Of a DNA stretch of 61,242 nt, positions 23,327-56,842 are shown piece by piece. How positions within the stretch are numbered: the stretch's first letter is position 1; each line of letters opens with the position of its first letter. Location of the stretch: assembly GCA_040384945.1 (NCBI GenBank), contig JAZKII010000058.1, positions 1 through 61,242 on the forward strand. The letters are read 5' to 3'. Position numbers and translations under genes: made by a program. The notes beneath the pieces are model-generated. The model ran no database searches. It was not told where the DNA came from and was given only the letters and a program-made list of their open reading frames with translations. The stretch comes from Pseudomonadota bacterium. GTDB lineage: Bacteria; Pseudomonadota; Alphaproteobacteria; Rickettsiales; UBA1997.

Positions 23327-23331
23327 GAAAT

Positions 23332-23362: not shown

Positions 23363-23363
23363 T

Positions 23364-29455: not shown

Positions 29456-29460
29456 ACCGA

Positions 29461-30375: not shown

Positions 30376-30378
30376 CTA

Positions 30379-31454: not shown

Positions 31455-31493
31455 TCAATATTTTAATCTCATGCCGTTCTTCCTCACTCGCAA

Positions 31494-31621
31494 AATTCCG
31501 GGGACAGTTTACCTAATTAAAATTTTCATTTTGAAGCAAATACCTGAGAATCATTTGTAATGCATTGGTAACAAATTTAAAACTTAGAAAAATGTCTTCT
31601 TCACAAATCACAACTAAAAAA
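31494..31621 (+). repeat. Leader repeat (copy 3) upstream of P4
   Basis: Near-identical to copy 1. It differs by a 1-nt indel just upstream of the A7 run that precedes the ATG. This indel puts the upstream MSSSQIT.. ATG in frame. Confidence 0.8.
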
Positions 31622-32245
31622 ATGACAAACAAATTTTTAAAATCTCTTTTAGCAGCGCTCATTCTTTTATCATCGCTAATGTTTGCGCATGCAGCTATTG
31701 CTCAAATCAGCAAATCAAAGATTCAAAATAGTGAACAATTAGGTGAAGATCCTGATTTAAAACTTTCTATTAAGGAATTGAGAAAAAAATATCCGATTGG
31801 TTGGTTGAAAAAGAAATATGGTGATTCCAAGCATCCATCGTGTGGGAATTCTGATGGAGCTTTTGAATATGAAGGTCCGATTCCAAAAAATCTTATATGC
31901 TCTTTTTTTACTAATGATATGTATTCCAAAAGCGATACATCCAAACTTATACCCTCATTCTCATTAGATCTTGAATTTTTCTCAAACAATCAAATCAAAA
32001 GTGCATTGATTGAGTATAACAATCTTTGGAAACAACACAGAGCTAGTGATGATGAAAGAGTAAGGGAAATAGTTATACTTGCGCTTCTGACTTTTGAAGA
32101 AAAAACAAATACTCTTACCGAAAATCAAAAAGAGCTAAAAAACTTTATTTATAAAAGCCAATTACTTCCAGTTTTACAAGATGCGATAGAGTGTAAGTAT
32201 GTCAATAGTGCCTACCAAACAAAAATTACCTGCCCAGTAAAATAA
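31622..32245 (+). CDS. Secreted-protein family member P4, directly upstream of the large M23 protein
   Basis: MTNKFLKSLLAALILLSSLMFAHAAIAQ signal. DPDLKLSIKELRKKYPIGWLKKKYGD, PKNLICSF and LKNFIYKSQL motifs are present. It ends 15 nt before the next gene. Confidence 0.8.
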   Translation: MTNKFLKSLLAALILLSSLMFAHAAIAQISKSKIQNSEQLGEDPDLKLSIKELRKKYPIGWLKKKYGDSKHPSCGNSDGAFEYEGPIPKNLICSFFTNDMYSKSDTSKLIPSFSLDLEFFSNNQIKSALIEYNNLWKQHRASDDERVREIVILALLTFEEKTNTLTENQKELKNFIYKSQLLPVLQDAIECKYVNSAYQTKITCPVK

Positions 32246-32260
32246 TTTATTTAATAATCT

Positions 32261-35200: not shown

Positions 35201-35575
35201 AGTTCACAACCAAGTCAGAAACCAAGCAGGAATTTAAGAACTGCGAGTCCGACAAGTTCTAGCCCGGTGAGTGACAAGCCAATCAGCATCTATCCAACAG
35301 CAATTCCGACAGTTATGGGAACAGGATTTCCAACAATCAATTCTACTTTTAATCAATCTTTGCCGCAATTTCCAAATCAAATTCCAACTCATAATCAAAA
35401 TTCCAATTTTATGGAAAGCCCGGGAGGGATTGCTGTTGCGGCTACAGCAGCATTGTTATTAACAGTAGTTGGGTTGAAATGGGTTTTTAGAAAAGGTGAG
35501 CCAAAGGTGAGCCCAGAGAAAGCTTACGCATCTCAGGTAGAGCAGAGTAATGGGATAGGATTAGGAAAAGGCTAA
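32261..35575 (+). CDS. 1104-aa protein: N-terminal M23 peptidase domain, central unknown domain, Tyr/Asp-rich and P/S/T/Q-rich repeats, C-terminal TM anchor
   Basis: VHEGIDFA (HxxxD) and AYHLHFEV (HxH), with no signal peptide. PS.QPT-type repeats run from about nt 34585 to 35400. A TM helix GGIAVAATAALLLTVVGLKWVF lies at about 35423-35491 and is followed by a basic tail. Confidence 0.8.
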   Translation: MPSLKLQYPPLSTFVISSEKGPRISPTTNIPTVHEGIDFAIADGTNLYNAHDGTVIFSGTSVGYGNTIVIQDKISGESTLYAHLSAIFFHKSDPITGKTPIGTTGNSGTSAYHLHFEVLSKEISDNLASSSSGKIPKSGRLNPRSYIAASPFASMLSTEVHSKELGFGTREGDSRSNTMVRDNVGTYYGTQMVFDGKEGYDTYKLKLSYTGQRIVKNTKDTHIVQSQDAISDADLDGKIIIDTGSQNILLSGNALPKTGVLGEIIAGEWTLDGLNLLQDGDDLVATKLGVKLADFKGITNPKVPTIPIKNFPFSNSRGGFGITLGKKADLSLGEDVFSLTLTDSYLPQGAFAVASSDKGLFGSLAMLDSQGSELPVSHSIGVFDNFGNQLATHDVETVVKSSVDAEMLTPEIGVGIRIGAGYSSGGYVVFPIAESGYIAGGSLQSRVGALLTDASGNVLAANIYDNTNSQTQNKVARNGAILVGKDDPSKLYFSYSLENIGRDVGTMVYQIDPTSLEPIGDVVSYSAYTWSRDSGALYQSPYSLSTQPDRYHFKLTNGATVDIGNDGKTITSRMTKLRDLFPDEIIPNYDLASGSQSTNSELAQQILTLGDATILDVVENPNSVVAVLNLDPTTNPNSKVTFSAFDSSQVAAYATDSSQYSIDALLSGEAKTSDMQLVYGAARTRRLTDGVEDVTDPYYYSYGSNATYSDYYYGSNYGNYTDDSVADDDELPALISYPYTFLELPNNQTVVLVGVNGTELAQSPYSFFLTSENITHAPSSYPSGQPTPNPFAISRAEPTSQPSNQPTVPPSIQPSTQPTGEPSSQPTYLPTVGEIISTSPTSLPSSAQPTGQPSIQPSTQPTGEPSSQPTYLPTVGEIISTSPTSLPSSAQPTGQPSIQPSRKPFAHPSTIPSYKPAAIPSFKPTRPSVQPTTEASAQLNSNPSAQPSSRPTNNPSLDPTHHPIAGDLSVSPTSQPSVNPSSQPSQKPSRNLRTASPTSSSPVSDKPISIYPTAIPTVMGTGFPTINSTFNQSLPQFPNQIPTHNQNSNFMESPGGIAVAATAALLLTVVGLKWVFRKGEPKVSPEKAYASQVEQSNGIGLGKG
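34688..34945 (+). repeat. Exact tandem duplication, 2 x 129 bp (43 aa), in the proline-rich region
   Basis: The unit PSIQPSTQPTGEPSSQPTYLPTVGEIISTSPTSLPSSAQPTGQ occurs twice, with copies starting at 34688 and 34817. A third copy starts and then diverges. Confidence 0.9.
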
Positions 35576-35618: not shown

Positions 35619-36230
35619 CTAATGCGAAAAAATATCAGCTGAACCAAACCCTTGAACATCAAGCTTGGCGCGGGTTGGTAAAAATCTCACGCAGGCTTCA
35701 AAAATCTCTACACGATTTTCTCTTTTTAACATTTCATCAAGTTTTGCTTTCAACTTATGCAAATGCAAAACGTCGGAAGCGGCGTATTCTAACTGTTTCT
35801 CGGTAATTTCAGCATTTCCCCAATCGGAAGTTTGTTGTTTTTTGGAAAGTTCAATTCCTAAAAGTTCATCGCAAAGTGATTTTAATCCATGGGCGTCGGT
35901 GTATGTACGAACTAATTTCGAAGCAATTTTGGTGCAGTAAATATTTTTGATTTCAACTTTTAAATAATGCTGCAAAGCCGCTAAATCAAAGCGGGCGAAG
36001 TGGAAGATTTTCTGAATTTTTTCGTCAGCCAAAAGTTTACACAAATTCGGCGCGTCATATTTTCCTTGTTCAAATTGCACCAAATGCGCATCGCCATTGC
36101 CATCGGAAATTTGCACCACGCAAAGACGATCGCGAATTATGTTTAAGCCCATTGTTTCGGAATCAATGGCAATTGAGCCTTTAAACTGAATGTCGGAAGG
36201 CAGATCGTTTTTATGTAAAAAATTTGTCAT
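35619..36230 (-). CDS. rnd: Short ribonuclease D-like 3'-5' exonuclease (DEDDy)
   Basis: IAIDSETMGL (Exo I), HFARFDLAAL (Exo II) and YAASDVLHL (Exo III YxxxD); 203 aa. Confidence 0.8.
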   Translation of the reverse strand: MTNFLHKNDLPSDIQFKGSIAIDSETMGLNIIRDRLCVVQISDGNGDAHLVQFEQGKYDAPNLCKLLADEKIQKIFHFARFDLAALQHYLKVEIKNIYCTKIASKLVRTYTDAHGLKSLCDELLGIELSKKQQTSDWGNAEITEKQLEYAASDVLHLHKLKAKLDEMLKRENRVEIFEACVRFLPTRAKLDVQGFGSADIFSH

Positions 36231-37997: not shown

Positions 37998-38729
37998 TTA
38001 AGAAGCTTTTTTCAAATTTTCAGAAACGAAATCCCAGTTTACCAGGTGGTTTAAGAAAGTGTCGATGTAAGTTGGGCGGGCATTTTGGTAATCCAAATAA
38101 TATGCATGTTCCCAAACATCCATTGTCATTAATGGAGTTGCAGAAGTTGTAAGTGGAGTTTCGGCATTGCCAGTTTTAGTAACTTTCAATTTACCATTTT
38201 CTAAAACTAACCAAGCCCAGCCTGAGCCGAATTGAGTTGCGCCGGCATTTTTAAATTCAGTTACGAAATTTTCGTAAGAACCAAAATCAGATTCGATTTT
38301 TTTCAAAACCTCGCCAGATGGCTTGCCGCCACCGTTTGGTTTCATTGAATGCCAGTAAAAAGTGTGATTCCAAACTTGTGCTGAATTATTGAAAATTCCG
38401 GCTTTAGCTTTGTCAGCGTGAGAAATTTTGATGATTTCTTCTAAAGATTTTCCATCCAAATCAGTGCCGGTAATTAAGTTATTTAAATTAGTAACATAAG
38501 CCTGATGATGTTTGCCATAGTGAAAATTCATGGTATTTTCAGAGATGTAGGGAGCTAGAGCGCCTTTATCGTAAGGCAATTTAGGTAATTCGATTTTGTG
38601 CATGGATCCTCCAAAAAATTTTGACTTAGAATTAGTAATGCCACTTAAGCCCTTGATTTTACAAGCGCCAAGAAGAAAGGCCGAAGAAAGGCAAACATTT
38701 TTAATGAATTTTCTTTTTGACATTTGCAT
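37998..38729 (-). CDS. sodB: Fe/Mn superoxide dismutase with a possible lipoprotein signal peptide
   Basis: FHYGKHHQAYV and MDVWEHAYYLDYQN motifs. Upstream in frame is MQMSKRKFIKNVCLSSAFLLGAC (lipobox LGAC). The alternative start MHKIELP at 38603 has ggagga 3 nt upstream and would give a cytoplasmic form. The maximal ORF reaches 38798. Confidence 0.8.
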   Translation of the reverse strand: MQMSKRKFIKNVCLSSAFLLGACKIKGLSGITNSKSKFFGGSMHKIELPKLPYDKGALAPYISENTMNFHYGKHHQAYVTNLNNLITGTDLDGKSLEEIIKISHADKAKAGIFNNSAQVWNHTFYWHSMKPNGGGKPSGEVLKKIESDFGSYENFVTEFKNAGATQFGSGWAWLVLENGKLKVTKTGNAETPLTTSATPLMTMDVWEHAYYLDYQNARPTYIDTFLNHLVNWDFVSENLKKAS

Positions 38730-38818
38730 GGGTGACAACCTAGTTTTGTTGCTTAGGCCACTTAACTTATTTTGGCTCTCTCGCATGTCAATTATCATTT
38801 TATTTTTTCACCAAAACC

Positions 38819-40827: not shown

Positions 40828-43632
40828 CTACTTCCAACAATCCGCCACAGTCACATCAACCTTCAACGGCACATCTAAAATCGCCGCATTTTCCATTTCA
40901 TATTTCAAAATCTTTGTCGCAATTTCCACTTCATTTTCTGGTGCTTCTACAATCAATTCGTCATGAATTTGTAAGATAATTTTTGATTGTAAATTTTCTT
41001 CCTTAAATCTTTTACTCAAACGAATCATCGCCTTTTTGATAATATCCGCGGCACTTCCCTGAATCGGCGCGTTAATCGCCAGGCGCTCAGCTTCGGCGCG
41101 GATCATCGGGTTTTTATTATTAATATCGCGGATAAAACATTTGCGCCCGGAAAGGGTTTGGACATAGCCATTTTTCCGAGCCAATTCGATGTAATTTTTC
41201 ATCGAAATATCAATTCCCGGATAAGTTTCTAAATAAGATTTTATATAAATTGCAGCTTCCTGACGTGGAATATCTAGTTGACGAGCCAGCCCGAACGCGC
41301 TGATTCCATAAATAATTCCGAAATTAATTGCTTTGGCTTTGGAGCGTAAAGAATCGTCAACTTCATCTTCTGTAACTCCGAAAACCTGCGCCGCTGTAAT
41401 GCGGTGAATATCTTTATCTTCTTTAAAGGCATTAATTAAATTTCCGATTTTTGCGGCATGAGCAATCACGCGCAGTTCAATTTGTGAATAGTCGGCGGAA
41501 ATTAAAAAATGATTTTTTTCAGCGATAAAACTTTCGCGGATTTTTTGGCCTTCCAAACTTTTTATCGGAATATTTTGCAGGTTTGGATACCTAGAGCTGA
41601 GCCTTCCGGTAATTGTTGAAGTTGTAGAAAAATGCGTGTGAATTCGGCCGGTTTGTGGGTTAATTTCTTCCGGCAAAGCATCGGTATAAGTATTTTTTAA
41701 TTTAGAAAATTTCCGGAAATCAAGAATTTTTCTTGCAATCGGATTTCCAGCCTCATCAAGCTCTTCAAGCACGCCAACACCGGTTGAAAGCGCTCCGGTT
41801 TTTTTTGATTTTTTGCCGGAAGCCAAACCCATTTTTTCAAATAAAACTTCCGAAAGTTGTTTGGCTGAAGCGATGTTAAATTCATGTCCGGCGAGGATGT
41901 AAATTTCGCTGCTTAATTCGGCGATTTTTTTACCGAATTCTTGTGAAAGTTGACGTAATTTTGCCACGTCAATTTTAATGCCGTTAGTTTCAATTTGCGC
42001 TAGAACCTCAATTAATGGGCGCTCAAAAGAAAGATAGGCTTCAGTTAATTTTTCAGGCGCAATTTTTGGCGCAAATATTTTGTAAAGTTGGTAAATTGCG
42101 AAATTTCTAAAAGTTAAAAATTCAGCTTTTTTTTCGGGATCGGCAAAAATTTCCGGCTCGCGATCTTTTTCAATTTCCGCAAAAACTTTGCCAAAACCTA
42201 ATTGTTCGACATCTTCGTTGAGATTAAGATCTATAAGCTCGCGTAAGTCATTTTTAACTGAAGAAGTTAAGAGGTGATGAATAGTTGCGACATCTTCGTA
42301 GGAATTTGCCGGAGAAAATTTTAAGAAATTTTTGGCATCGAAAAAGATTTTTTTAATTGAATCATCAGTCAGAATTTTTTCTAGAATTTCGATGTCAAAG
42401 CCTTCAGTTTCAATCTTTTCTGGTTCGTGATTAAAACTAAATAAATCAAAAGAGTGATTTTGATTTGGAGTTTTTGCCGATTTTTTTACTTCGAAATAAA
42501 GAATTTCTTTTGGAGAATCGCCTGATTTACAAGTTGAAATTGTGATGAAATTTTTATCGCGGTCGATTGTGACTTGGCCGTTTGTAGATGCTTCTTTGTT
42601 GAGTCGCGCGATTATTTCGGGAGATGAAATTAAAGTTTTTTGGCATGACGAAAACACGCTAGATCCTGAATCAAGTTCAGGATGACGGAGTTCTTGGGAA
42701 GATTTTACCACATCGTCATCATGAACTTGATTCAGGATCTGTTTTTCAACAGGAACAGCAGCATTTTCCGAAATTCCAAATTCTTTGCGAACTCTTGTAA
42801 TCAATGAATGAAAGCCTTGAATCTGCAAAAAAGAAATTAATTTATGCGGATCAAGGGCGCGAATTTCTAATTCATCCAAATGAATTCCTAACTCAACATC
42901 TTCTTTCAAAGCTGCTAAAATTTTTGAAAGTTTGGCTTTTTCAATTCCTTCGCTCAAAAGCTGGCGACGCTTTTCTTGCTTGATTTGATGCAGGTTTTCA
43001 AAAATATTTTCCAGATTTCCAAATTGCTTAATTAATTCGGCAGCGGTTTTTGGGCCAATGCCTTTTACGCCTGGAATGTTATCTGATGTGTCACCAATTA
43101 ATGACAACATATCTAAAACTTTTTCTGGCCCAACTTCGAATTTTTCTATAACTTGGGGAATTCCAATCATGCGGTTTTTCATCGAATCATACATGTGGAT
43201 ATTTTCTCCAACCAGCTGCATCAAGTCTTTATCCGATGAAACGATTAAAACTTCATAACCTTCAATTTCAGCTTTTTTGGCGATGGTTGCGATGATGTCG
43301 TCAGCTTCGAAACCAATTTTTTCAAGTATTGATAAATTCAATGATTCGGCGCTTTCACGAACAATCGAAAATTGCGGAATTAATTCTTCAGGGCAGGGTG
43401 GACGATTGGCTTTGTAAGCCGGATAAATATCATTTCTAAAAGTTTTAGAGCCGGAATCAAAAACAACAGCGGCGTGAGTTACATTAAGCCCGGCCAAAAG
43501 TTTAATTAACATATTGGTGAAGCCATAAACTGCACCAACCGGCGTGCCATCTGGTCTGGTTAAAGGTGGCAAAGAATGAAAGGCGCGAAATACGAAGCCA
43601 TAACCGTCAATTAAGGCGATTTTTTTGGACAT
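40828..43632 (-). CDS. polA: DNA polymerase I with an in-frame family-B palindrome insertion
   Basis: 5'-nuclease N-terminus LIDGYGFVFRAFH. Polymerase motifs ADYSQIELRV, RSKAKAINFGIIYG and LQIHDELIVE are present; 934 aa. Confidence 0.95.
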   Translation of the reverse strand: MSKKIALIDGYGFVFRAFHSLPPLTRPDGTPVGAVYGFTNMLIKLLAGLNVTHAAVVFDSGSKTFRNDIYPAYKANRPPCPEELIPQFSIVRESAESLNLSILEKIGFEADDIIATIAKKAEIEGYEVLIVSSDKDLMQLVGENIHMYDSMKNRMIGIPQVIEKFEVGPEKVLDMLSLIGDTSDNIPGVKGIGPKTAAELIKQFGNLENIFENLHQIKQEKRRQLLSEGIEKAKLSKILAALKEDVELGIHLDELEIRALDPHKLISFLQIQGFHSLITRVRKEFGISENAAVPVEKQILNQVHDDDVVKSSQELRHPELDSGSSVFSSCQKTLISSPEIIARLNKEASTNGQVTIDRDKNFITISTCKSGDSPKEILYFEVKKSAKTPNQNHSFDLFSFNHEPEKIETEGFDIEILEKILTDDSIKKIFFDAKNFLKFSPANSYEDVATIHHLLTSSVKNDLRELIDLNLNEDVEQLGFGKVFAEIEKDREPEIFADPEKKAEFLTFRNFAIYQLYKIFAPKIAPEKLTEAYLSFERPLIEVLAQIETNGIKIDVAKLRQLSQEFGKKIAELSSEIYILAGHEFNIASAKQLSEVLFEKMGLASGKKSKKTGALSTGVGVLEELDEAGNPIARKILDFRKFSKLKNTYTDALPEEINPQTGRIHTHFSTTSTITGRLSSRYPNLQNIPIKSLEGQKIRESFIAEKNHFLISADYSQIELRVIAHAAKIGNLINAFKEDKDIHRITAAQVFGVTEDEVDDSLRSKAKAINFGIIYGISAFGLARQLDIPRQEAAIYIKSYLETYPGIDISMKNYIELARKNGYVQTLSGRKCFIRDINNKNPMIRAEAERLAINAPIQGSAADIIKKAMIRLSKRFKEENLQSKIILQIHDELIVEAPENEVEIATKILKYEMENAAILDVPLKVDVTVADCWK
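42661..42740. repeat. Family-B palindrome inside polA, translated in frame
   Basis: agatcctgaatcaagttcaggatgacg..cgtcatcatgaacttgattcaggatct encodes about QILNQVHDDDVVKSSQELRHPELDSGS. This lies in the linker after the 5'-nuclease domain. Confidence 0.85.
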
Positions 43633-46288: not shown

Positions 46289-47041
46289 TTACTTTTTATT
46301 GTTAAAATTTTTACCAATAAGAATTGCAATTTCGAATAATAAAATCATCGGAATTGCTAAACTAACCTGACTCAAGATGTCTGGGGGAGTAAGGACGGCG
46401 GCCACTAAAAAAATGATCACAATCCAATATCTTCTCTTCTTTCTTAAATCATTGGCGGACAAACAACCAACTTTAATTAAAAAAAGCAACAAGATTGGTA
46501 ATTCAAATGCGATACCAAATCCAAATAGTAAATTTGTTACAAAATTTAAGTATTCACTAATTCGTGTTTCAAGTTGAATCGGAAGTGAAGCAGATGTTGC
46601 GGAGCCTTGAATCTCAAAGCTCGCGAAGAATTGAAAAGCGACGGGCAAAATAAAATAATAAGCAAAAATTGCGCCGCATAAAAATAAAAGTGGAGCGAAA
46701 AAAAATGTTAATAGAATATTTTTTTTCTCATTTTTGTATAAAGCCGGAGATAAAAAAAGATAAATTTCGGCAGCAAAAATTGGGAAAGAAAAAAATAATG
46801 CAGAAGAAAGAGAAAGTTTTAAATAGGTCATGAAGGCTTCAGTGGGGCTGGTGTAGATCAATTTGCGATTCTGATTATTTTGTGAAATTTCTGCGAAAGG
46901 TTGTAATAAAAATTCGTAAATTTTTTCAGAAAAAAAATAGCAGAGTGCAAAAGTTATGATGAAAAATATTAGAGAAAAAATTACACGTTTGCGAAGTTCG
47001 GAAAAATGTTCGTGAAGTGTCATGAAGTTTTTTTTATTCAT
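46289..47041 (-). CDS. tatC: Twin-arginine translocase subunit TatC
   Basis: [17 protein letters not shown]-terminus; 6-TM layout; 250 aa. Confidence 0.85.
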
Positions 47042-47281: not shown

Positions 47282-47992
47282 CTATCTCGCTTCAATTCGT
47301 AATTGGCAAACTGGGCTAATTGTACTTTGATTATATTCACCAAGCTTCACACATTCATCATTCATCGGAACATTTAACATATCACCACCAAGCGCAATAA
47401 TTCTGCCTTTTTGCGGATTGCCATCATCCATTTTTTTATCAAACAAAAATGCTTCTTCACTTTTCAGACTGCGATTATTTGTGTAAAGGCGATCAACATC
47501 GGCAAATTTAAAACCGATTTGGTAAAAAGTTTTTCCTTCATTTCCAAAAGCTACAATGCCGGAATTTTCTCCGATTTTACTTAATGGAAAAGTGCTGCCG
47601 TTTTTGGCATCGCCATCATCTTGGCCATCATAATTTTCATTGATCATTTTTGTTTTTGATAAATGAAGCCAGAACTTGGTTATTTCACCATTAGCCATGA
47701 GGATTTGCTGCACTCTATCTGTAATTATATTATCGTTATTACCATCGGTGCTAGATTCGGTGATACCATAAGCAACGGTGCTTTTAAGATCTCCTGGAAG
47801 TGCTTGGTATTTTTGAGTAAAATTATTGAGAGCAGCATCATATTTTTTGATCTGCATGATGAGGGATTTTACATCATTTTCTTTGATTATTTTTTTAACA
47901 AAGAAAATGCCGGCAATAGCGATGCTGATAATACAAAGTGTGATTAAAAATTCGATGATGGTAAAAGCGTTTTTAGAATTTTTATTTTTCAT
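47282..47992 (-). CDS. Type IV pilin / pseudopilin-like protein
   Basis: Prepilin-type N-terminus MKNKNSKNA|FTIIEFLITLCIISIAIAGIFFV with Glu at +5. A C-terminal Cys pair (NDECVKLGEYNQSTISPVC) resembles a pilin D-region. The start lies 7 nt after the stop of the 2424-aa gene. Confidence 0.7.
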   Translation of the reverse strand: MKNKNSKNAFTIIEFLITLCIISIAIAGIFFVKKIIKENDVKSLIMQIKKYDAALNNFTQKYQALPGDLKSTVAYGITESSTDGNNDNIITDRVQQILMANGEITKFWLHLSKTKMINENYDGQDDGDAKNGSTFPLSKIGENSGIVAFGNEGKTFYQIGFKFADVDRLYTNNRSLKSEEAFLFDKKMDDGNPQKGRIIALGGDMLNVPMNDECVKLGEYNQSTISPVCQLRIEAR

Positions 47993-47999: not shown

Positions 48000-50900
48000 T
48001 TATGAATTTTCGTCACCGCCTTTATCTCCATCAAATCTTTCAGTAAATTTTTTGAAGGCTTCAGGTGAATCTAAACCTTTAGTAGCTTTTGCAATTTCTT
48101 TTGATCTGTCTTCTTGCTCTTGCACAAATTTTTCTGCTGCTTCTGGAGATTCCAAGCTGTCATATTTTTTAACTAGCTCTTCAGCGCGTTCATAAGAACC
48201 GCTATGTGGAGTTTTGTTGTTAGGGTCTTGGTCTCTTGCTGCATCTTCTTTTTCCATTAAAGTTCTGGCGTGCTCAGAAAGAGCATCAGCTTTCTCAGCT
48301 GCATTACCAAGTCTGGTCGCATCGTCGAATTCTTTTTTACCTTCTTTTTCATCTTTGACTGCATTTTGATATTTTTCTTCTTTAGGATCTAGCGCCTTGC
48401 CTGTTGCTTTATCAGCCATTCTTTTCATAAGAGAAGGGCGTTCTTTAGCAGCTTCTTCTTTAGTTGCGCCTGCGGTTGCTATTTTTTCTTTGGCGGCAGT
48501 TTTTTTCTCGGCTATGGTTTGTGTAGTTCCAGCTTGTTTATCTTTTAATTTGGTAATGTTTTTATTTCTAGGTTCTACCGGAGCTTTAGCAGCGCTTCCT
48601 GAAGTTGGAGAGGCACCAGTAGGCGAAGTTGCGCCCGCTGTTGCACCTGCTGCTGATCCATCACTAGTTGAGGTAACAAGTGGATTTGTAACTTCTGATT
48701 CTGTCGCTGCTGCTTTGCTTTGTTCTTCATCTTTGTCACGCAGTAAGTCAGCTCTTTGTTGACCTTCTTCGCTAATTTCACTAGCAGTTGTTGCTGCGGT
48801 GTCGAATTCTTCGGTTGCTTGAAGTTTCTCTTTGATATTTTCCAATTTGGTATCGATTTGTCTGACAGCAGCACCAGCCAAATTTTGTTTTTTGGTAAGT
48901 TCAGCAAGTTTTGGATCTTCAGCACCACCCATTTGTCTGAGTTGGGATTGAGCTTTTCTAGCTTCCTTATCTTCTTTTCTGGCAGCAGAGTCGAGAATTC
49001 TTGGTATAGTGCCGGTAAAACCTTCGTGAGTTTTTTTAGCTTTTTCAGTTAATTCTGTTACTAATGCAGCTCTTTCTATGGATTCAGGTTTATTTTTATG
49101 TTCCTCAACTGCTGCGGTAGCGGTGTCGTAATCTTGCATTGCAGTTGCGCGGCCTTTTTCCAAATTCTTTTTCTCACCTTTAACTGCGGTAAGTTTTTCT
49201 TTACCTTGTTCTTTAGCAGCTTTGAGCAAGTCTTTCTTGGTGTCTTCTTTGATTGTTGCACCTTGTTTACCAATTGGATTATATCTTTTGGCTGCAGCTG
49301 ATATTCTTCCTCCGACTTGTTCAGAGAATCTGGCATTGTCAGGAATTGCGGCAATTTCTTTATTATAAGCTTCTTCTTTGGCGATGCCGGTCATGGTGTT
49401 TAAATCAGGAGTTTTAATTCCAGATTTTTTCTCATTTTCATTTTGTTTCACTCGATCTTGTATCATCTTCTTATCTGCATCCGGACGAGCAAAATTGGTT
49501 CCCGGAGCCATTCTAACCAAAGCTGTTTCTTTTTCTAATTGTTTGGTGGCTTCATAACCTTTTGGATCTGACAGTCTTTCAGCCATATCAGCTGCCGAAC
49601 TCATGGCGTTTGCTGCAGAGCTGACAGCTTTTCCGGCAGCTGCTGCTGTTTTTTTAACTGCCATCGCTGGTAATAAAACTGGTGATGCAAGAACCAGTCC
49701 TGCTGTTTTCAATTTATTTTCAGAAGTAAACTTAGCAGCAGAATCAATGTTATTACCAATTGAATCTCTAGTATTTACTATAGCTCTGCCTGTTGCTTTT
49801 CCAGCTCCTGCAACAGCTCCGACTGCTGCAATTCCAGCTCCTGCAACAGCTCCGACTGCCGCACCTCCAGCTCCTGCAACAGCTCCGATTGCCGCACCTC
49901 CAGCTCCGATTGCTGCACTGCCGGCTGCTTTTGCTGTTGTACCTGGATTGTGCAAAGCAAATTCAGCGCCTGCTGATATAGCTTTTCCAGCTGCTGATAT
50001 AGATTTTCCAGCTTGAGCTCTGGCTTCATCACCTTTTTCTGTTGGGCTCATAAGTGTTGCTGCGCCCATTGCTGCACTTGCAGCTCCAGATGCTGCGCTA
50101 GATGCAGCACCACCAATTGCTTTGCCGACAGAAGTTTCTGATGCAGCTTTTGCAGCGCTACTCATTGCGCTGCCGACGGCTCCAGCTGCGCCACCGACAG
50201 TTTTAGCTACGTCCGAAAGTTTTGCGGCAGTATTTTTTTCGACATCAATATTGCCTTTGGCAATATTTTCTTTGAGCGTTTTAGCATCTTCGGTACTCAG
50301 GCCTTTTCCTCCAGCTTGAGCAACAGAAAGTTTAAGATCTGATGATTTTTCGCTTAGAGATTCATTGAGAGTTTTAGCGCCCATGAATCTTTGTTTTAGC
50401 ATGCTGGCAGCAGCTCCGCCGATAGTATCTCCTTCGAATTTGAAGCCTTTATCCTTGTTCAATCTATCAATATCCTCATCTTTTAGGCCGAGATCTTTAC
50501 CTGCTTTGGTTTCAGCTGCATTTCTAACACCTTTCAGTATTTTGTTTCGTTCCCCTTCTTTCATACCAGAAAGCGCGACTTCATTTTTGTTGAAATAATC
50601 TTTTTCAGCTTTTTTACCGGCTTTGGACATGGCGCTTTTATTGGAGAAATCTTTGGCATTGTTGGCTTTGCGGGCGTTGCGTTCTTTATCCGCCATGGCT
50701 CCGGAATCGAAAAGAGCTTTATCCATTCTTTGCACGACTTGGCCACCGGTTTTATTCCATACATCTTGACGGGCTTTTTTAGCCATAGCACTAACTTCTT
50801 TAGCTGCATCAGCAATGCCTTTGCCCATTGCGCTGGCTGATAAACCACCACTAATTGAAGCGGCAAGATCAGTCATAAAGCCAATGAATTTATTCATTAG

Positions 50901-53900
50901 TGAGGCAATTACCCAAATGAAGAGAATGGAAAATAATGATGGAATACCTTCTGGATTTCCGATGTTGCCAACATCAGACTGCGCATTAGTTCTTGGTGGC
51001 AATGAGGCGATTGTCCAGAATGATAGTAATGTGATGCGGGTGATGATGTTGATGGTCCAGACTTCATCCCAGCAGATTTTGTAACCAAGTGAAAGTTTAA
51101 TAACTTCATACATCAACATATTGAAGAAGGCGAGAGTGGTGAGTAAGAAAATTTGTTGCAGCGAGAAGCCGATCAATTGCTTGAGCCAATTGTCGAACAT
51201 TTCCTTGGTTTGGTTGAAGAGCGTAAAGATGAGGAATATCGGCCCCAAAGTGAAGAGGATCGAGATAAATATCTGCGCCGTTAAATATAGTAATACGGCG
51301 TTGGCAACTGAGTAAACATAAAGCATGAAGCTTTGATAGATGATGAGCAAATAAGCCCAACCGAAGATACTGGCGAATAATAAAGCGGAGACTTTTTTCT
51401 GCACGGCTTGAGAGAAGAACATGCTGAAAACATTATCGACGCTGCCGAAAAGAACAGATTTATCGTAATAATCACTATTGGCAATTGCATCAGAGACGGC
51501 GTGGTTAGTTGAATCGTCAAAGGAGGCGGCCATCATGAAGGCGAGATAATCGGTGCCGTTTTTAAAGAACCTCACCACTAAATTATTGAACCAATCCCAA
51601 CCGGTTTCGCCGATAAAGAGATAGATTATACCGATCTTGATGATGCGGTTCATAATCTCGGAGTGGTTTAATTCACTGGTTCCCATTAGATAACCAACGC
51701 CGTAAAAGCTAAACATCACCACGAAACACATGGTTACGATTGCTTTGAACCTAGGATCGGCAATGACCAGTTTGTAAACTCTTTCTGCCTGACCAACGTT
51801 AGCTTTTTTACAATAATATTGTTTAGCGCAATTAGTGCCATCGCTGTCAATGCAGGTAGAACCTGTGTTGGTGTCGATAATGTCGTCTAGAGTGTCAACA
51901 TATAAAGGGTTATCTGTTCTTACGCCATCATTTGAGATAATGCTGCCAGTTGTGCTGCAATTACGTGTTTTTGGGCCATCCATAACTTCAATTACAGGAG
52001 CAATAACGCCGCCAATAATACTGGAAATGGTGCCTGTAACTTCGCTTTTTACCTTAATATTAACAAAATATGAGCCGCTATTATTGGCATATTTATTGGC
52101 GCAGTAATATTGTTTTATGCAGGTTTGAGTAGCTAACTCAGTAGCAGTACAAGTTTTGCCGGTATTAGGAAGGTTTGTAGTGCAAATAGTAGTGCAATTT
52201 TGACCCTCAGAGTCACAAGTACTTCCTGAATAATAACCCCGATTTCCATCGGAAGCATCGCAGCTATCTGTGTTATAAATTGGATTTGCAAGTTTGCTAC
52301 CATCGGCTGAGGATCCAGTAGCATCGGCTCCGCTGGAGAGATTACAATTTGTAATTTCAGGATCCATGATCTTGAAAGATAGTCTTAATTTCTGGATTGA
52401 GCTTTCAATATCATCTTGATCATCTTGTGATTTTGCTTTTAGGGTAGAAGCAGAATAATATTGGTAAGTGTGGCAGTAGAAATTAGCGCCGGCAACTGAA
52501 GCAACGCCATTATCATTTGCAGTACAATCCTTGGTGGTTCCGTTAACAACTAAAGAATAATTATTAGTGCGTAAGATATTGCCATAACCATCAAATCCAT
52601 AACTGGTTGAAATATTTGGTGGAGTGCCTGCTGGTGTTGTGCTTGTAGGTGGAGTAATCTCGATTAATTGGGGTTGATCGCTAATAGCAATCGGATCGGA
52701 GTTTTTGCAGAGTATGCCGCTGTCATCTTCTAAGCATAGTCGGCCTTGCAACCATTGGCCGTTAGAAAAATCAAGCATTCCGGATAGATTGATTTTAAAA
52801 CCATTGGAGCCGGAATAAGCGCTACCGATTACAGTGTTGTTGGTATAGGCATTGTAGGCACCGTTATTATTGGCAACGCTCACGTCATTCAAATCAGAAC
52901 CATCAAGCATGAAGAATCTTAACCTGCCTTCTGTTCCAAAAGTCAGAGGTTGTTGGAGCTGAAAAATTTTATTATTGCCAGTTGTATCTGTGGTTCCGGA
53001 ATCAACAAAGTTTTCAAGATTTCCATAACTACCATTAAAGGCACTGATTTTGGTAAGTCCTTTGGTTATTGTTGAATCTGCAAGTTCTGTATCAGAATAT
53101 CCTGTAGTGCCGTTGCGGATTAATGATACTTTACTGGTATAATTTTCCAGGTCGTAACATTGAATCATATTAGATAAAGCAATTTTACCTGACAGGCTGG
53201 CATTATCTTTCATCTTGTTAGAGCAGGCAGTGCAGGTTGCAGAAGTGATAGTGGTGGTGTAAGATTCTGAAGGGCAGGCGGTTGTAGTTGGTGCTGTTAC
53301 TGTACAAGTTCCTTTTTGATAAAGAGGAGAAACACCATCAGGACAAGTTATAGTGGATTGGCAATTAGTAAGTGGACAATAATTAGATGTAGATGCGCTA
53401 TCAGAACATTCACTGGCAACTGCCTTACAACCGATCAATGTTCCGCTACTATTATAGTCTTGGGTGCAGGCTGTATTTAAAACATAATCAGATGCTGTTC
53501 CTCTGCAAAGTAATGCAGGTCTTGGTTCAATCATCATTGCCATTCCAATGCCGCATTGACGATTTCCGGCGCTTGTTGTCCAGGCTCCATCCCAACTCTT
53601 AGGTGAGAAGCGGATTACTTGTCCTTTTCTAACAAAGGATAAATTTGACCAGCTTATTGTCGAGCTTGATGCTGGTACGGTTAAATTGGCAAGAGGATCT
53701 TTTGATGATGTAGGTATTGTAGCGAAATTATCATATTCATATATATCATCACTAGCAAAAGTTCCTTCCGGATTCATAATGCGGGCCTTAATTGTGCAAT
53801 TTCCGCTGCCGTTAAGCATGGTAAATTTTACAAAACCGGACTTTTGCATTTTTAATTCGTGGTATTTATTAAATTTGACCCCGATTCCTTTGCCGCAAGT

Positions 53901-55274
53901 GCCTGAGCTTGTAAGTTTTGCAACGGAAAGTGTTTTTCCGATTTCAAGTGGAATTTCTTTATCGTCGCTCCAACTACTATTTGTAACTGCGGTTGAGTAA
54001 GAAACTCCATTACTATCCGTAACGACTAACGTAACATTGCAGGAAGTATCGCCGGTTAGAGACTTGAATGAAACTCGGAAAGGAGTATCAGAAGTGGGAT
54101 TTAAAATCGAAACTGAGGTAGTGGAAAGATCTCCCAGAATTTTCCCTGAAGTTGCCGGAGTGGAATCTATGTTGGTACAGACTCCCGTGGCAATAGTACA
54201 AACTGTGGAAGGGAAAACCAGGTCATCGGTAAAAGAAGTTAAATTATCTCCGGTCCAGCGAATAACACCGCCATAAGATGTAAGAATATCGGATGCAGCG
54301 TCGGAAGATAAAGGAAATACAGCTATAGCTAAAGAGTTATCAGCATTGGTATATCCGGCTGAAACAGAGTAAGGATTGGTGGTTTTATTATGACAATTTG
54401 CTTCGGTTAAAGTACTCCCAGTATAGTCGCAAGTCCAGGCTAGAGCATCAGGTAAAAGAGGAGTTCCTTTGGTTCCAGTTTGTTCGGTTGATTGAGAAGT
54501 ATCAAAATTATAACCCTCAGGATGAGGAATTACATAAGCAATAATTCTTCGTGCACCACTATAAGTAGCATTGCTAATTGCTCCGGCTCCAGAACCTACA
54601 GTAGTACTGCCGTCAGACCATGATCCGCTAAATTTCAAATTAATAGTTTGTCCGTTTCTGACATCAAAAAATACATCAGTTGCTCCGCTCGACCAAGCTG
54701 CTTTTTTTGCATGAGGAATAGGATTGTTAGCTTGAACATGAATAGGATTATAATCCAGACTATCACCTAAATGAATTGTTCCAATTGCGCGGATAATGAT
54801 TTCTGATCCTGGCCTGATTGTAACACCACTATTAGCAGTAGTTGATCTTTTATCGGTTGAAATCCAGTCTGGTTCGGGAGTTCCAGAAACTCCGGTACCG
54901 GATAAACAGTTTTGTATGCAGGTAGTAACGCATAAATTTTTATAAGTGGCATCAGTAAAACCAAAGCAGCCAGTAGTACTGGTTTGAGAAGCGCCGGCTT
55001 CATCATAAACTGTAGTACTACCGGCAGTGAAACATGATTTAAGCCCACTGCCTTGAGTTGCATCAGTCAGTTCTAGTGAGCCATCATAGGTACATTTTTC
55101 TTGTTGGGAGTTGGCGGAAACCTCAATTGTTTGAGTTTCATATTCACCAAAATCATCGGCATCGATACAACCTTGGTCAGTGCAGGAAGAAGAAAGGGCA
55201 AAAAATAGTAATAAAACCGCCGTCTTGGCGCAGATTTTCTGATGCTGGATTTTTTTGAGCCAATTCTTGATCAA
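48000..55274 (-). CDS. 2424-aa envelope protein: signal peptide, about 1150-aa Cys/Thr/Ser/Gly-rich N-domain, TrbL/VirB6-like polytopic core, about 940-aa Ala/Lys/Gly/Glu-rich tail
   Basis: The signal is KTAVLLLFFALSSSC. The polytopic block (nt about 50830-51760) contains ILFTLGPIFLIFTLFNQTKEMFDNWLKQLIGFSLQQIF. From memory this resembles the GP(I/L)F..LF..T...F..W..L signature of TrbL/VirB6. The tail is low-complexity with AGAGGAAVGAV repeats. Confidence 0.55.
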   Translation of the reverse strand: MIKNWLKKIQHQKICAKTAVLLLFFALSSSCTDQGCIDADDFGEYETQTIEVSANSQQEKCTYDGSLELTDATQGSGLKSCFTAGSTTVYDEAGASQTSTTGCFGFTDATYKNLCVTTCIQNCLSGTGVSGTPEPDWISTDKRSTTANSGVTIRPGSEIIIRAIGTIHLGDSLDYNPIHVQANNPIPHAKKAAWSSGATDVFFDVRNGQTINLKFSGSWSDGSTTVGSGAGAISNATYSGARRIIAYVIPHPEGYNFDTSQSTEQTGTKGTPLLPDALAWTCDYTGSTLTEANCHNKTTNPYSVSAGYTNADNSLAIAVFPLSSDAASDILTSYGGVIRWTGDNLTSFTDDLVFPSTVCTIATGVCTNIDSTPATSGKILGDLSTTSVSILNPTSDTPFRVSFKSLTGDTSCNVTLVVTDSNGVSYSTAVTNSSWSDDKEIPLEIGKTLSVAKLTSSGTCGKGIGVKFNKYHELKMQKSGFVKFTMLNGSGNCTIKARIMNPEGTFASDDIYEYDNFATIPTSSKDPLANLTVPASSSTISWSNLSFVRKGQVIRFSPKSWDGAWTTSAGNRQCGIGMAMMIEPRPALLCRGTASDYVLNTACTQDYNSSGTLIGCKAVASECSDSASTSNYCPLTNCQSTITCPDGVSPLYQKGTCTVTAPTTTACPSESYTTTITSATCTACSNKMKDNASLSGKIALSNMIQCYDLENYTSKVSLIRNGTTGYSDTELADSTITKGLTKISAFNGSYGNLENFVDSGTTDTTGNNKIFQLQQPLTFGTEGRLRFFMLDGSDLNDVSVANNNGAYNAYTNNTVIGSAYSGSNGFKINLSGMLDFSNGQWLQGRLCLEDDSGILCKNSDPIAISDQPQLIEITPPTSTTPAGTPPNISTSYGFDGYGNILRTNNYSLVVNGTTKDCTANDNGVASVAGANFYCHTYQYYSASTLKAKSQDDQDDIESSIQKLRLSFKIMDPEITNCNLSSGADATGSSADGSKLANPIYNTDSCDASDGNRGYYSGSTCDSEGQNCTTICTTNLPNTGKTCTATELATQTCIKQYYCANKYANNSGSYFVNIKVKSEVTGTISSIIGGVIAPVIEVMDGPKTRNCSTTGSIISNDGVRTDNPLYVDTLDDIIDTNTGSTCIDSDGTNCAKQYYCKKANVGQAERVYKLVIADPRFKAIVTMCFVVMFSFYGVGYLMGTSELNHSEIMNRIIKIGIIYLFIGETGWDWFNNLVVRFFKNGTDYLAFMMAASFDDSTNHAVSDAIANSDYYDKSVLFGSVDNVFSMFFSQAVQKKVSALLFASIFGWAYLLIIYQSFMLYVYSVANAVLLYLTAQIFISILFTLGPIFLIFTLFNQTKEMFDNWLKQLIGFSLQQIFLLTTLAFFNMLMYEVIKLSLGYKICWDEVWTINIITRITLLSFWTIASLPPRTNAQSDVGNIGNPEGIPSLFSILFIWVIASLMNKFIGFMTDLAASISGGLSASAMGKGIADAAKEVSAMAKKARQDVWNKTGGQVVQRMDKALFDSGAMADKERNARKANNAKDFSNKSAMSKAGKKAEKDYFNKNEVALSGMKEGERNKILKGVRNAAETKAGKDLGLKDEDIDRLNKDKGFKFEGDTIGGAAASMLKQRFMGAKTLNESLSEKSSDLKLSVAQAGGKGLSTEDAKTLKENIAKGNIDVEKNTAAKLSDVAKTVGGAAGAVGSAMSSAAKAASETSVGKAIGGAASSAASGAASAAMGAATLMSPTEKGDEARAQAGKSISAAGKAISAGAEFALHNPGTTAKAAGSAAIGAGGAAIGAVAGAGGAAVGAVAGAGIAAVGAVAGAGKATGRAIVNTRDSIGNNIDSAAKFTSENKLKTAGLVLASPVLLPAMAVKKTAAAAGKAVSSAANAMSSAADMAERLSDPKGYEATKQLEKETALVRMAPGTNFARPDADKKMIQDRVKQNENEKKSGIKTPDLNTMTGIAKEEAYNKEIAAIPDNARFSEQVGGRISAAAKRYNPIGKQGATIKEDTKKDLLKAAKEQGKEKLTAVKGEKKNLEKGRATAMQDYDTATAAVEEHKNKPESIERAALVTELTEKAKKTHEGFTGTIPRILDSAARKEDKEARKAQSQLRQMGGAEDPKLAELTKKQNLAGAAVRQIDTKLENIKEKLQATEEFDTAATTASEISEEGQQRADLLRDKDEEQSKAAATESEVTNPLVTSTSDGSAAGATAGATSPTGASPTSGSAAKAPVEPRNKNITKLKDKQAGTTQTIAEKKTAAKEKIATAGATKEEAAKERPSLMKRMADKATGKALDPKEEKYQNAVKDEKEGKKEFDDATRLGNAAEKADALSEHARTLMEKEDAARDQDPNNKTPHSGSYERAEELVKKYDSLESPEAAEKFVQEQEDRSKEIAKATKGLDSPEAFKKFTERFDGDKGGDENS
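49801..49920. repeat. 33-bp tandem repeat (3.6 copies) in the tail of the 2424-aa gene
   Basis: The unit ccagctcctgcaacagctccgactgc.gca..t starts at 49801, 49834 and 49867, with a partial copy from 49900. It encodes (GAGGAAVGAVA)n on the minus strand. Confidence 0.9.
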
Positions 55275-55351: not shown

Positions 55352-56335
55352 CTAAAACTTAGATCTAATTAAATTTGCTACTCTTTTTGTTTCTAAAAGT
55401 TTTTTTGAAGAAAAATTTTCCAGTTCAAAAATATTTCGCGAAAGTTTTTTAGCATAATTTTCGGCAATTAAATTCTGGTGAAACTTGCGATGTTTTTTGG
55501 AAGAAATTTCTTTTTCATCAAAAATATAAACCGGCTTGCCGGTTGAACAGCATTCTGAAATCATTGAAACCGAATCGCCGGTAATCACGAAAAAATCAGC
55601 ATATCCTAAAATTGCCAGATAAGGATTTTCGTTTTTGGTTTCTTTCCAATCGAAAAATTTAAAATCGCAATTCAGGTTTGATTTTACTGCTTGCGATAAT
55701 TCATCGCCCGATCTTCTGCTGTTTAAAACCAGCAAAGTTGCATCCATATTATTAACAATTTCAGAAAGGATTTTGGCGAGTTTAATTCCGGAATCTGTAG
55801 TAAATTCAGTTTTGTTAGAAGAGCCGCCAAGCATTAAAGCAATTTTGGGTTTTTGAATTTCGGCAAACCAGGTGGCAAATCTTTCACGTTCTTTGGCAAT
55901 TGATTTTTCGTTGGTTTTAGTAAGTGCGCCAATTGTAGTGATTAAATTGGAATGTGCAGATTCATCAGCTTCATCATGTTTTGGTAAAATCACGAAATCA
56001 AATTTATCGAAATTCAAATTAGGATTCATGATTTGCACAATTTTTGTGCGATTATCGGATAATTCTTTTAAATAAAGTGCTACTGGCGCAGATCTTCTGC
56101 CTGCGGAAATAACCAGGCTGGGAAGATAATCAAGATTCTGGAATTTATCTTTGACATCTTTGGTTAATCGAATCAGCGATCGGCTGAATAAAAAATTCGG
56201 CAAAACCGCCAGAGAATTATAAGTGAGATTAATAATTTTATAATCAAACCCAATTTCTTCCGCCAATCCAATACTTTGTGAAACCGTGCCTGGCCTATCG
56301 TCCCCGAGTATCCAAATTTCGTCTTTGATGATCAT
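55352..56335 (-). CDS. ELM1/DUF1022-family protein (putative glycosyltransferase-like)
   Basis: The N-terminus IWILGDDRPGTVSQSIGLAEEIG matches the W.L.D.r.G...Q..GLAE pattern of this family; 327 aa. Confidence 0.6.
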   Translation of the reverse strand: MIIKDEIWILGDDRPGTVSQSIGLAEEIGFDYKIINLTYNSLAVLPNFLFSRSLIRLTKDVKDKFQNLDYLPSLVISAGRRSAPVALYLKELSDNRTKIVQIMNPNLNFDKFDFVILPKHDEADESAHSNLITTIGALTKTNEKSIAKERERFATWFAEIQKPKIALMLGGSSNKTEFTTDSGIKLAKILSEIVNNMDATLLVLNSRRSGDELSQAVKSNLNCDFKFFDWKETKNENPYLAILGYADFFVITGDSVSMISECCSTGKPVYIFDEKEISSKKHRKFHQNLIAENYAKKLSRNIFELENFSSKKLLETKRVANLIRSKF

Positions 56336-56353: not shown

Positions 56354-56842
56354 TTATTTTCCTAATTTATCCATCAATTTTTTCTCCACATTCGGTGAAA
56401 CAAACCCTGAAATATTTCCACCCAATCTCGCAACTTCTTTTACCAATCTTGATGCAATAAAATGATTAGTTTCTGATGCTGGTAAAAAAATAGTTTGAAT
56501 TTCAGGATTCAACTTCGAATTCATGCCATACATTTGAAACTCATATTCAAAATCTGAAACGGCGCGAAGTCCACGAATAATAACTTTCGAATTTCTTTTG
56601 CTGGCATATTCCACCAACAAACCTTCAAATTTTTCTACCGTAATATTATTGTGTGTATTTAAAAATTGCGTTTCTTCCTCAATCAATTTCACTCTTTCAT
56701 CCAGCGTGAAAAGCGGGTTTTTGTAATTATCTTTCGCGGCGGCAATTATTAAATGATCGAAAAGTTCACTGGCTCTTTTAATAATATCAAGATGTCCAAA
56801 AGTAATCGGATCAAAAGTTCCCGGATAAATTGCAATTCTCAT
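56354..56842 (-). CDS. coaD: Phosphopantetheine adenylyltransferase
   Basis: IAIYPGTFDPITFGHLDIIKRA and RGLRAVSDFEYE blocks; 162 aa. Confidence 0.95.
   Translation of the reverse strand: MRIAIYPGTFDPITFGHLDIIKRASELFDHLIIAAAKDNYKNPLFTLDERVKLIEEETQFLNTHNNITVEKFEGLLVEYASKRNSKVIIRGLRAVSDFEYEFQMYGMNSKLNPEIQTIFLPASETNHFIASRLVKEVARLGGNISGFVSPNVEKKLMDKLGK

Follow-up and report, generated by a model that had tools for sequence, protein, structure and literature searches.

A giant VirB6-like protein with a cysteine-rich N-terminal domain in an uncultured Rickettsiales lineage and its possible place in a type IV secretion system

Whether a very large membrane protein encoded among housekeeping genes is a subunit of a type IV secretion system (T4SS) or serves the cell envelope in some other way is the question raised by the locus analysed here. 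The window, that is the whole stretch of 61,242 nucleotides (nt) of contig JAZKII010000058.1 from a Pseudomonadota bacterium, carries a giant gene, whose features are collected in Table 1. The initial annotation, made from the letters alone, had described its product of 2,424 amino acids (aa) as a VirB6/TrbL-like membrane core between two huge extensions, and the Pfam match of the core and the collinear homologues of the whole protein bore this description out. The protein is considered, with moderate confidence, to be an extended VirB6-like platform subunit of a VirB5-less rvh T4SS, with its N-terminal domain (N-domain) in the position of a periplasmic stalk or adhesin. No description of such a family was found in the literature on VirB6 with Deianiraea or Gamibacteraceae and on 'extended VirB6'; what is new here is the cysteine-rich N-domain without outside relatives, the fixed housekeeping locus and the pilin-like partner.

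The polytopic block in the middle of the protein is a bona fide VirB6/TrbL core. The match to PF04610 (TrbL/VirB6), put forward in the initial annotation as a check on its proposal, was significant (aa 1187-1392, nt 51099-51716, E 1e-17, 65.1 bits against a cut-off of 25.9) and spans positions 4-184 of the 215 of the profile. The same family was matched by 21 of the 21 members tested, with a best E of 3e-21. The hydrophobic segments of the core lie at aa 1176-1468. The motif likened at the outset to a TrbL/VirB6 signature was located inside the block and aligned, in the core profile, to LGPLFILALIWQPTHRFFDQWAQQVLNYGL of TrwI, the VirB6 of R388. A model of the core (aa 1060-1560) was built by AlphaFold2 from 40 family sequences with a predicted local distance difference test score (pLDDT) of 63. 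Its comparison with the PDB by Foldseek gave TrwI/VirB6 of R388 as the best eight matches, with a probability of 1.00, template modelling scores (TM-scores) on the target of 0.47-0.63 and E values down to 7.9e-4. With a profile of the core only, TrwI was the sole meaningful match among the PDB sequences (E 3.6e-4, in two collinear stretches). Conservation in the giant protein is highest in the core, whose mean identity to 39 homologues is 76% (range 57-97%) compared with 43% for the N-domain. A database search with the core only, for an outgroup VirB6, returned seven matches, all of them fragments of the same family.

A compositional feature of the core was also observed. The GC content at third codon positions rises to 0.56-0.59 in the window's core (50835-51779) against 0.20-0.40 elsewhere in the giant gene, other genes of the window, including tatC and cydA, lying at 0.25-0.45, and the core prefers TTC and ATC codons. 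The rise was present in 47 of 48 related loci, with mean values of 0.44 for the core, 0.31 for the N-domain and 0.28 for the tail. Selection at synonymous sites of this best-conserved region may lie behind it.

The open reading frame (ORF) is one genuine gene. Its product is 100% identical to MES2961521.1, recorded as 'MAG: type IV secretion system protein [Pseudomonadota bacterium]' (MAG, metagenome-assembled genome). The database search revealed homologues in 93 clusters, formed at 90% identity, which measure 1,435-2,570 aa, are 31-81% identical and collinear, and all carry PF04610. The order of N-domain, core and tail recurs in more than 100 clusters that derive independently from many samples and assemblers, with lengths of 1,500-3,400 aa, and 53 giant-gene loci were found on scanning the GTDB species-representative genomes. 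Conserved blocks cross every domain junction in an alignment of 40 members, the start region MIKNW...SSC-TDQGCIDADDF is common to the close homologues, and the frame has zero internal stops. Since the full-length homologues are collinear, a fusion artefact, which the initial annotation had named as an outcome that would overturn its reading, is ruled out. The first 60 codons offer no alternative start, and the TTG lacks an obvious ribosome-binding site ahead of it.

The part ahead of the core gives the protein its unusual character. It begins with a hydrophobic segment (aa 14-32) and SSS-C31; Cys31 is conserved in 97% of 40 homologues, always after Ser and a hydrophobic (h-) region, and the homologues continue with (T/S)DQGCI(D/E)ADDF. 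Many homologues fit the lipobox [LVI][ASTVI][GAS]-C (LSSC, VGSC, IFSC), the LSSS-C of the window being one residue off, and Cys31 may be lipidated. The composition of aa 30-1150 (T 12.9%, S 11.9%, G 8.8%, C 3.8%) agrees with the first impression of an N-terminal region of about 1150 aa rich in Cys and Thr/Ser/Gly. Cysteines kept in at least 80% of the members number 35, of which 34 lie in the N-domain, one (C1401) in a loop of the core and none in the tail; the N-domain would be rich in disulfides. The AlphaFold2 model of the N-domain, with a mean pLDDT of 81.8 and a predicted TM-score (pTM) of 0.69, consists mostly of strands, and a chain of beta-sandwiches is predicted. Foldseek against the PDB and the viral BFVD gave nothing significant for this fold, only faint jelly-roll, carbohydrate-binding module (CBM) or discoidin-like matches with a best E of about 1e-3 and TM-scores on the query of at most 0.1, the queries being whole chains, for which the method is insensitive in multidomain models. 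A sequence profile of the N-domain likewise matched nothing in the PDB; Pfam and NCBIfam gave nothing for the N-region beyond a sub-threshold CLIP match, and no Pfam family was common to the N-regions of 21 members. The phmmer search of 1.84 billion representative proteins returned 121 matches only. In almost all of the long ones (about 1,500-2,600 aa) the domain is N-terminal, and the short ones resemble fragments. Because the matches are thus family members and apparent fragments, the N-domain is, as judged from sequence comparison, exclusive to the giant VirB6-like family. No internal repeats were reported by blastp in the N-domain or the tail.

The N-domain is presumably extracytoplasmic, in view of the signal peptide and of the 34 conserved cysteines against none in the tail. 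Further support comes from the member P0121 (3,387 aa, from a Lake Biwa MAG), whose enlarged pre-core region holds three SUEL lectin repeats, which points to an extracytoplasmic, possibly glycan-binding, pre-core side. The N-domain is separated from the first membrane helix by an inserted segment of about 60 aa (51795-51975, minus strand, aa 1100-1160), which contains four extra Cys and a second copy (aa 1151-1155) of the KQYYC motif present upstream (aa 1054-1058). As these extra Cys occur in only about 35% of the family members, the insertion is a recent local duplication in a sub-clade.

The lineage of the window bears on the role of the protein. Related locus L039 belongs to 'Rickettsiales bacterium UBA2645' and L040 to 'Alphaproteobacteria bacterium RIFCSPLOWO2_01_FULL_40_26', both listed by Schön et al. 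in, and founding members of, 'Ca. Gamibacteraceae', an aquatic Rickettsiales family that is sister to the ectosymbiont 'Ca. Deianiraea vastatrix' (10.1101/2021.08.31.458344; PMC9352585). Both share the whole locus with the window, the neighbour proteins being roughly 60-85% identical, and most of the 53 related loci come from 'Rickettsiales bacterium' MAGs. Because the full locus is shared, the window would fall in the same broad lineage as L039 and L040, and we infer from these comparisons an uncultured aquatic Rickettsiales, at family level near 'Ca. Gamibacteraceae'. The rvh T4SS is almost universally retained across Rickettsiales (PMC10847448), and it is distinguished by the duplication of RvhB4, RvhB8 and RvhB9, by multicopy RvhB6 and by the absence of VirB5 (PMC11077975); Deianiraea has three VirB6 copies and lacks VirB5 (10.1101/479196). 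On the conservative reading, preferred here to the new envelope machine on a VirB6 fold that the initial annotation had also entertained, the giant protein would be a divergent RvhB6-type subunit, because its lineage lies in the Rickettsiales, where a VirB5-less rvh system with multicopy extended VirB6 is the hallmark. Several MAG records (L007, L012, L013, L022 and others) are labelled 'Rickettsia typhi', 'Rhizobium sp. Q54' or 'Lentimonas sp.'; these labels look wrong, the gene content and synteny being those of the same uncultured freshwater Rickettsiales clade, for which the locus and the N-domain are good markers.

The topology of the giant protein can be approached through its VirB6 homologues. 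In VirB6 of Agrobacterium and Brucella and in ComB6, the N-terminus is periplasmic and the C-terminus cytoplasmic (PMC7648143). Such a topology, with the N-terminus outside, about five helices and the C-terminus inside, fits the five long hydrophobic helices of the core model (1174-1197, 1204-1229, 1305-1350, 1354-1395 and 1447-1475), the signal peptide, the Cys-rich N-domain and the Cys-free, Lys-rich tail. Given the homologues and the modelled helices, the N-domain would be periplasmic and the Lys-rich tail cytoplasmic. In the mechanism proposed, the core would assemble into oligomers in the inner membrane and so provide the rvh (P-type) T4SS of the lineage with its VirB6 platform, as in R388, whose stalk has VirB6 at its base and VirB5 above it (description of PDB 7o3v). 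The N-domain would stand in the periplasm above this platform, where VirB5 sits in canonical systems, and could act as a built-in stalk or adhesive module, because it would hold the VirB5 position and Rickettsiales are without VirB5. The conserved proximal part of the tail may serve as a docking surface in the cytoplasm and, in a sub-clade including the window, a type-IV-pilin-like protein may be co-expressed as an accessory partner.

The likeliest start of this pilin-like ORF lies 8 nt past the stop of the giant gene; an upstream in-frame ATG at 48031 would make the two overlap. The ORF begins with MKNKNSKNAFTIIEFLITL, which resembles a prepilin, its N-terminus reading KNAFTIIEFLI, and the motif KNA-FTIIE-FLITLCIISIAIAG compares with the canonical G-F-T-L-I-E followed by a hydrophobic helix. 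The match to Pfam N_methyl (E 0.0016, 18.4 bits) is under the cut-off of 21.2, and that to TIGR02532 (16.3 bits) is exactly at the cut-off. In the cleavage motif K-x-A-F-T-I-I-E, position -1 is Ala and not Gly in nearly all homologues, and Glu+5 is conserved across them. A pilin-like ORF directly follows the giant gene, at gaps of -44 to +69 nt, in 20 of the 58 sequences compared (the window counted), and its homologues form 50 clusters of 53-93% identity with a giant gene on the same contig wherever checked. Owing to this occurrence in a part of the loci and only beside the giant gene wherever checked, the pilin-like protein appears from sequence to be a dedicated partner that is restricted to a sub-clade. 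The initial annotation had taken it as the only coupled gene; the coupling holds in the window, but it extends to those 20 loci only, and the universal same-strand neighbour is the Elm1-like gene. Among the window and the homologues in 19 loci, the pilin-like motif was seen to be decayed in L053 and L055.

The gene order of the locus, as compared with related loci by tblastn, is rlmH (opposite strand), coaD, Elm1-like gene, giant gene, pilin-like gene where present, tatC and, farther on, polA. The order from rlmH to tatC is retained across homologues of 31-81% protein identity, and the Elm1-like gene is the immediate upstream neighbour on the same strand in essentially every locus with upstream DNA. 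The housekeeping neighbours in the window are tatC, the Elm1-like gene (PF06258), coaD, rlmH, mnmE, asd and polA. A distant member of 1,571 aa is encoded between thiC and lepA, and among the loci compared the giant gene was never found in a virB operon. A promoter and terminator scan of the locus gave counts no better than those of shuffled sequence. The window holds a single giant copy, and two are present in each of two related loci: L058 (2510-16144) has two giant TrbL-domain genes in tandem, of 2,485 and 2,047 aa, and L061 (2836-20164) has one on either side of coaD and the Elm1-like gene, of 1,647 aa in the gap between rlmH and coaD and of 3,387 aa after the Elm1-like gene. The latter protein was seen to carry three SUEL repeats and a Gly_rich_2 match.

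These arrangements bear in both directions on assignment to a T4SS. The paired paralogues in L058 and L061 fit the multicopy habit of RvhB6, and in L001 a lone virB3 (3640-3936, minus strand, 98 aa, PF05101) lies 6 kb upstream of the giant gene. Several observations weigh against the assignment. Classical virB6 paralogues of Rickettsiales follow virB3-virB4, whereas the giant gene stands in the rlmH, coaD, Elm1-like and tatC context. Apart from that one virB3, the window and the 10 kb around the gene in about 60 related loci are without T4SS genes, called genes within 10 kb having been checked for T4SS families in L001-L004 and L058-L062. For the window, the remark at the outset that no other T4SS gene is present held good: the profile hidden Markov model scan, which covered ORFs of at least 100 aa, found no T4SS Pfam family, and VirB3 of L001 as a tblastn probe matched neither the window nor the other loci. 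The confidence of the core model (pLDDT 63) is moderate only, a simple positive-inside count of loop charges was ambiguous, and the phmmer search with the N-domain gave no relatives of Rickettsia, Anaplasma or Ehrlichia size. Further, the C-terminal tail of Anaplasma VirB6-3 and VirB6-4 is reported to be surface-exposed, which conflicts with a cytoplasmic tail (PMC7648143). The virB3 of L001 was seen to lie between aspS and an aminotransferase gene, with virB4 not beside it, and T4SS genes seem to be unusually dispersed in the giant-gene lineage.

The comparison with known VirB6 proteins placed the giant protein in the 'extended VirB6-like' class, which comprises Rickettsiales VirB6 with extended N- or C-terminal hydrophilic regions (PMC7648143), as it has 1,165 aa before the core and 944 aa after it. 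The statement in the initial annotation that enlarged Rickettsiales VirB6 are far smaller is true of Rickettsia RvhB6a-e, with 674-1,154 aa (PMC2653234), but fails for A. phagocytophilum VirB6-4, which reaches 4,322 and 9,935 aa with C-terminal repeat extensions (PMC7648143). The giant size is therefore not unprecedented, and the unusual part is the N-domain of about 1,130 aa. The extended VirB6 proteins of Anaplasmataceae (A. phagocytophilum VirB6-3 and VirB6-4; Ehrlichia VirB6-1 to -4) resemble the giant protein in their TrbL/VirB6 core, very large hydrophilic extensions and repetitive, fast-evolving C-terminal tails, at equal or larger size (PMC7648143). They differ in that their genes lie in a sodB-virB3-virB4-virB6 operon and their bulk is C-terminal repeats, whereas the giant gene lies in a housekeeping locus and the hallmark of its product is the conserved Cys-rich N-domain without detectable homologue outside the family. 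RvhB6a-e are likewise multicopy in a VirB5-less rvh T4SS and have a TrbL domain of about 413 aa that is flanked by N- and C-terminal extensions (PMC2653234), as the window's relatives L058 and L061 also hold two copies at the locus; their genes, however, stand in tandem after rvhB3-rvhB4, whereas the giant protein has over twice their length, and its gene occurs once in the window and is unlinked to rvh genes. TrwI/VirB6 of R388 (PDB 7o3v, 8rt9, 8rtd) shares the core fold and the motif LGP...F(D)xW..Q. At 342 aa it has no large extensions and works with a separate TrwJ/VirB5 pentamer, unlike the giant protein with about 1,130 aa before its core in a VirB5-less lineage. TraG of the F plasmid and of SXT also combines a VirB6-like domain with a large hydrophilic domain acting outside the cytoplasm, in mating-pair stabilisation and entry exclusion (PMC7648143). 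TraG, unlike the giant protein, has this domain at its C-terminal end and is encoded in a conjugation operon, and no likeness of sequence or fold to the N-domain was detected.

In rvh systems VirB5 is absent and VirB6 occurs as enlarged, multiple subunits whose extensions are without known function. The giant family has a confidently modelled module of about 1,130 aa, rich in conserved Cys, which would lie on the VirB5-facing side of VirB6; the family occurs in a lineage (Gamibacteraceae, sister to Deianiraea) thought to live on, not in, protist hosts. If the module were a stalk or adhesive tip, the contact of a VirB5-less system with its target would be accounted for, and a structural handle on 'extended VirB6' proteins generally would be gained. 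A bolder version, which must be called unlikely, is that the N-domain is a cis-encoded replacement of VirB5 that runs as a stalk through the outer-membrane complex to the surface, where its beta-sandwiches would bind glycans of host or prey, the pilin-like protein being recruited by the VirB6 platform in the sub-clade; this would be a hybrid of T4SS and type IV pilin, so far undescribed.

The alternative that survives best, possible though somewhat improbable, is that of an orphan envelope protein independent of any T4SS, whose VirB6 core would serve only to oligomerise in the inner membrane and to anchor there a large module of the periplasm or the surface. This module, with the same reserve, would be an adhesin, an envelope tether or a glycan-binding device, working with the pilin-like protein in some clades and possibly with the Elm1-like neighbour of glycosyltransferase fold. 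The location in a housekeeping locus in all close relatives and at thiC-lepA in the distant member, never in a virB cluster, speaks for it, as do the uniqueness of the N-domain to the family, the lectin repeats in the N-region of one member, the presence of the pilin-like family beside the giant gene only and the constant Elm1-like gene directly upstream on the same strand. Other points stand against it. T4SS genes are typically scattered in Rickettsiales, so that missing clustering is weak evidence, and in L001 a virB3 is only 6 kb away. The pair of coaD and the Elm1-like gene may be plain conserved gene order, for no promoter or terminator above chance separates or joins the genes. A core identity of 57-97% suggests many conserved protein contacts, as inside a machine, and VirB6 homologues are not known to act outside a T4SS. 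Should the giant protein do so, a VirB6 core put to a different use in the envelope would be seen for the first time.

Placement of the functional weight in the tail was also weighed. The composition of aa 1480-2424 (A 18.8%, K 12.7%, G 8.9%, E 8.8%, no Cys) confirmed the early description of about 940 C-terminal aa rich in Ala/Lys/Gly/Glu. The proximal part has the invariant residues D1518, F1522, G1525 and A1528 (motif LFDSG), and the 33-bp tandem repeats noticed at the outset are real (Tandem Repeats Finder score 188, 94% matches). Matches of the tail in the PDB (dynactin, TolA, myosin, huntingtin) were set aside as low-complexity or coiled-coil noise. Another alternative is that the protein exerts its function through the variable tail, exposed at the surface or else cleaved and delivered as a payload, with the N-domain secondary, in parallel with a proposal for Anaplasma VirB6-3 and VirB6-4 (PMC7648143). 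This is doubtful. A long, low-complexity, fast-evolving tail with a tandem repeat does resemble the trypsin-accessible C-terminal repeats of A. phagocytophilum (PMC7648143), but the giant protein's tail has no Cys and 12.7% Lys and follows the last helix on the side that is cytoplasmic in VirB6 of Agrobacterium and Brucella and in ComB6 (PMC7648143). Conservation of most of the tail is also poor, down to its length; the N-domain, by contrast, is preserved along 1,130 aa and has invariant cysteines, so that selection acts mainly on the N-domain and the core. Weakest and barely credible is a mis-assembled ORF or a frameshift-fused reading of several genes, whose sole oddity in its favour, a TTG start without a clear ribosome-binding site, stands against the more than 100 collinear clusters, the 53 MAG species, the shared N-terminus with its start region, the absence of internal stops and the conserved blocks across all domain junctions.

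Table 1. Features of the giant gene and of its neighbours in the window (coordinates in nt of the window).
Feature	Position	Strand	Extent and evidence
Giant gene, extended VirB6-like protein	48000..55274	-	single ORF, 2,424 aa, TTG start
Signal peptide with lipobox-like end	55182..55274	-	aa 1-31; ...LLLFFALSSS-C31
Family-specific N-domain	51780..55184	-	aa 31-1165; T/S/G/N-rich, 34 conserved Cys, predicted multi-beta-sandwich
Densest conserved-Cys cluster of N-domain	53157..53555	-	aa 574-706; 14 Cys, mostly invariant
VirB6/TrbL polytopic membrane core	50835..51779	-	aa 1166-1480; PF04610, Foldseek, profile, hydropathy
Signature motif FTLGPIFLIFTLFNQTKEMFDNWLKQLIGFSLQQIF	51147-51254	-	aa 1341-1376, within polytopic block
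Conserved proximal tail	50175..50834	-	aa 1481-1700; mean identity 35%, occupancy 0.97
Variable low-complexity Ala/Lys/Glu/Gly-rich distal tail	48003..50174	-	aa 1701-2424; mean identity 9-14%, low occupancy
Conserved island in distal tail	49395-49574	-	aa 1901-1960; mean identity 34%
33-bp tandem repeat	49800..49907	-	3.3 copies, encodes GAA(I/V)GAVAGAG, about aa 1790-1825
Type-IV-pilin-like ORF	47282..47992	-	236 aa from ATG 47992; N_methyl, TIGR02532, synteny
tatC, conserved downstream neighbour	46289..47041	-	Pfam TatC E 3.1e-69; synteny
Elm1-like gene (PF06258)	55352..56335	-	Pfam E 4.4e-73; 77 nt from start of giant gene
coaD-like cytidylyltransferase gene	56354..56842	-	CTP_transf_like E 2.5e-23; synteny

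Downstream of the giant gene by about 9 kb and on the same strand, a gene for an Fe/Mn superoxide dismutase was observed (37998-38798, minus strand), whose ORF has about 70 extra N-terminal residues ahead of Sod_Fe_N; the arrangement recurs in L061 (28969-29709). In Anaplasmataceae sodB is co-transcribed with virB3-virB4-virB6 (PMC7648143). The vicinity of the superoxide dismutase gene to the giant gene is probably a coincidence.

Other genes of the window were noted as well. An ORF of 4,285 aa on the plus strand (9200-22057) contains RTX repeats, many cadherin-like and Big_9 domains, a Peptidase_S8 subtilase and a P-domain, and is followed on the same strand by genes for a TolC-like protein (22067-23326), an ABC exporter (23717-25417) and HlyD (25414-26652), with a gene of the 23S-rRNA-IVP family (23364-23720) between the TolC-like and ABC genes. 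The region 9200-26652 (plus strand) has the appearance of a full type I secretion locus that serves a giant adhesin or protease. A link of the 4,285-aa ORF with the giant VirB6 was rejected, the former being an RTX/cadherin/subtilase type I substrate with its own TolC, ABC and HlyD genes. The adjoining plus-strand cluster (27399-35575) encodes an ankyrin-repeat protein (27399-28424), a small M23 peptidase (30379-30771), a 1,104-aa M23 peptidase with PT repeats (32261-35575) and four ORFs without a Pfam match; these are possible secreted or effector-type genes. In MAGs of Rickettsiales, M23 peptidases have served to mark candidate 'bacteria-killing' effectors of the T4SS (PMC9352585). DNA polymerase I appears to be split in the window, as PolA (40828-43632, minus strand, 934 aa) has 5'-3' exonuclease and polymerase domains only, and a stand-alone 3'-5' exonuclease ORF (35619-36230, minus strand, 203 aa, DNA_pol_A_exo1) lies about 4.6 kb from it.

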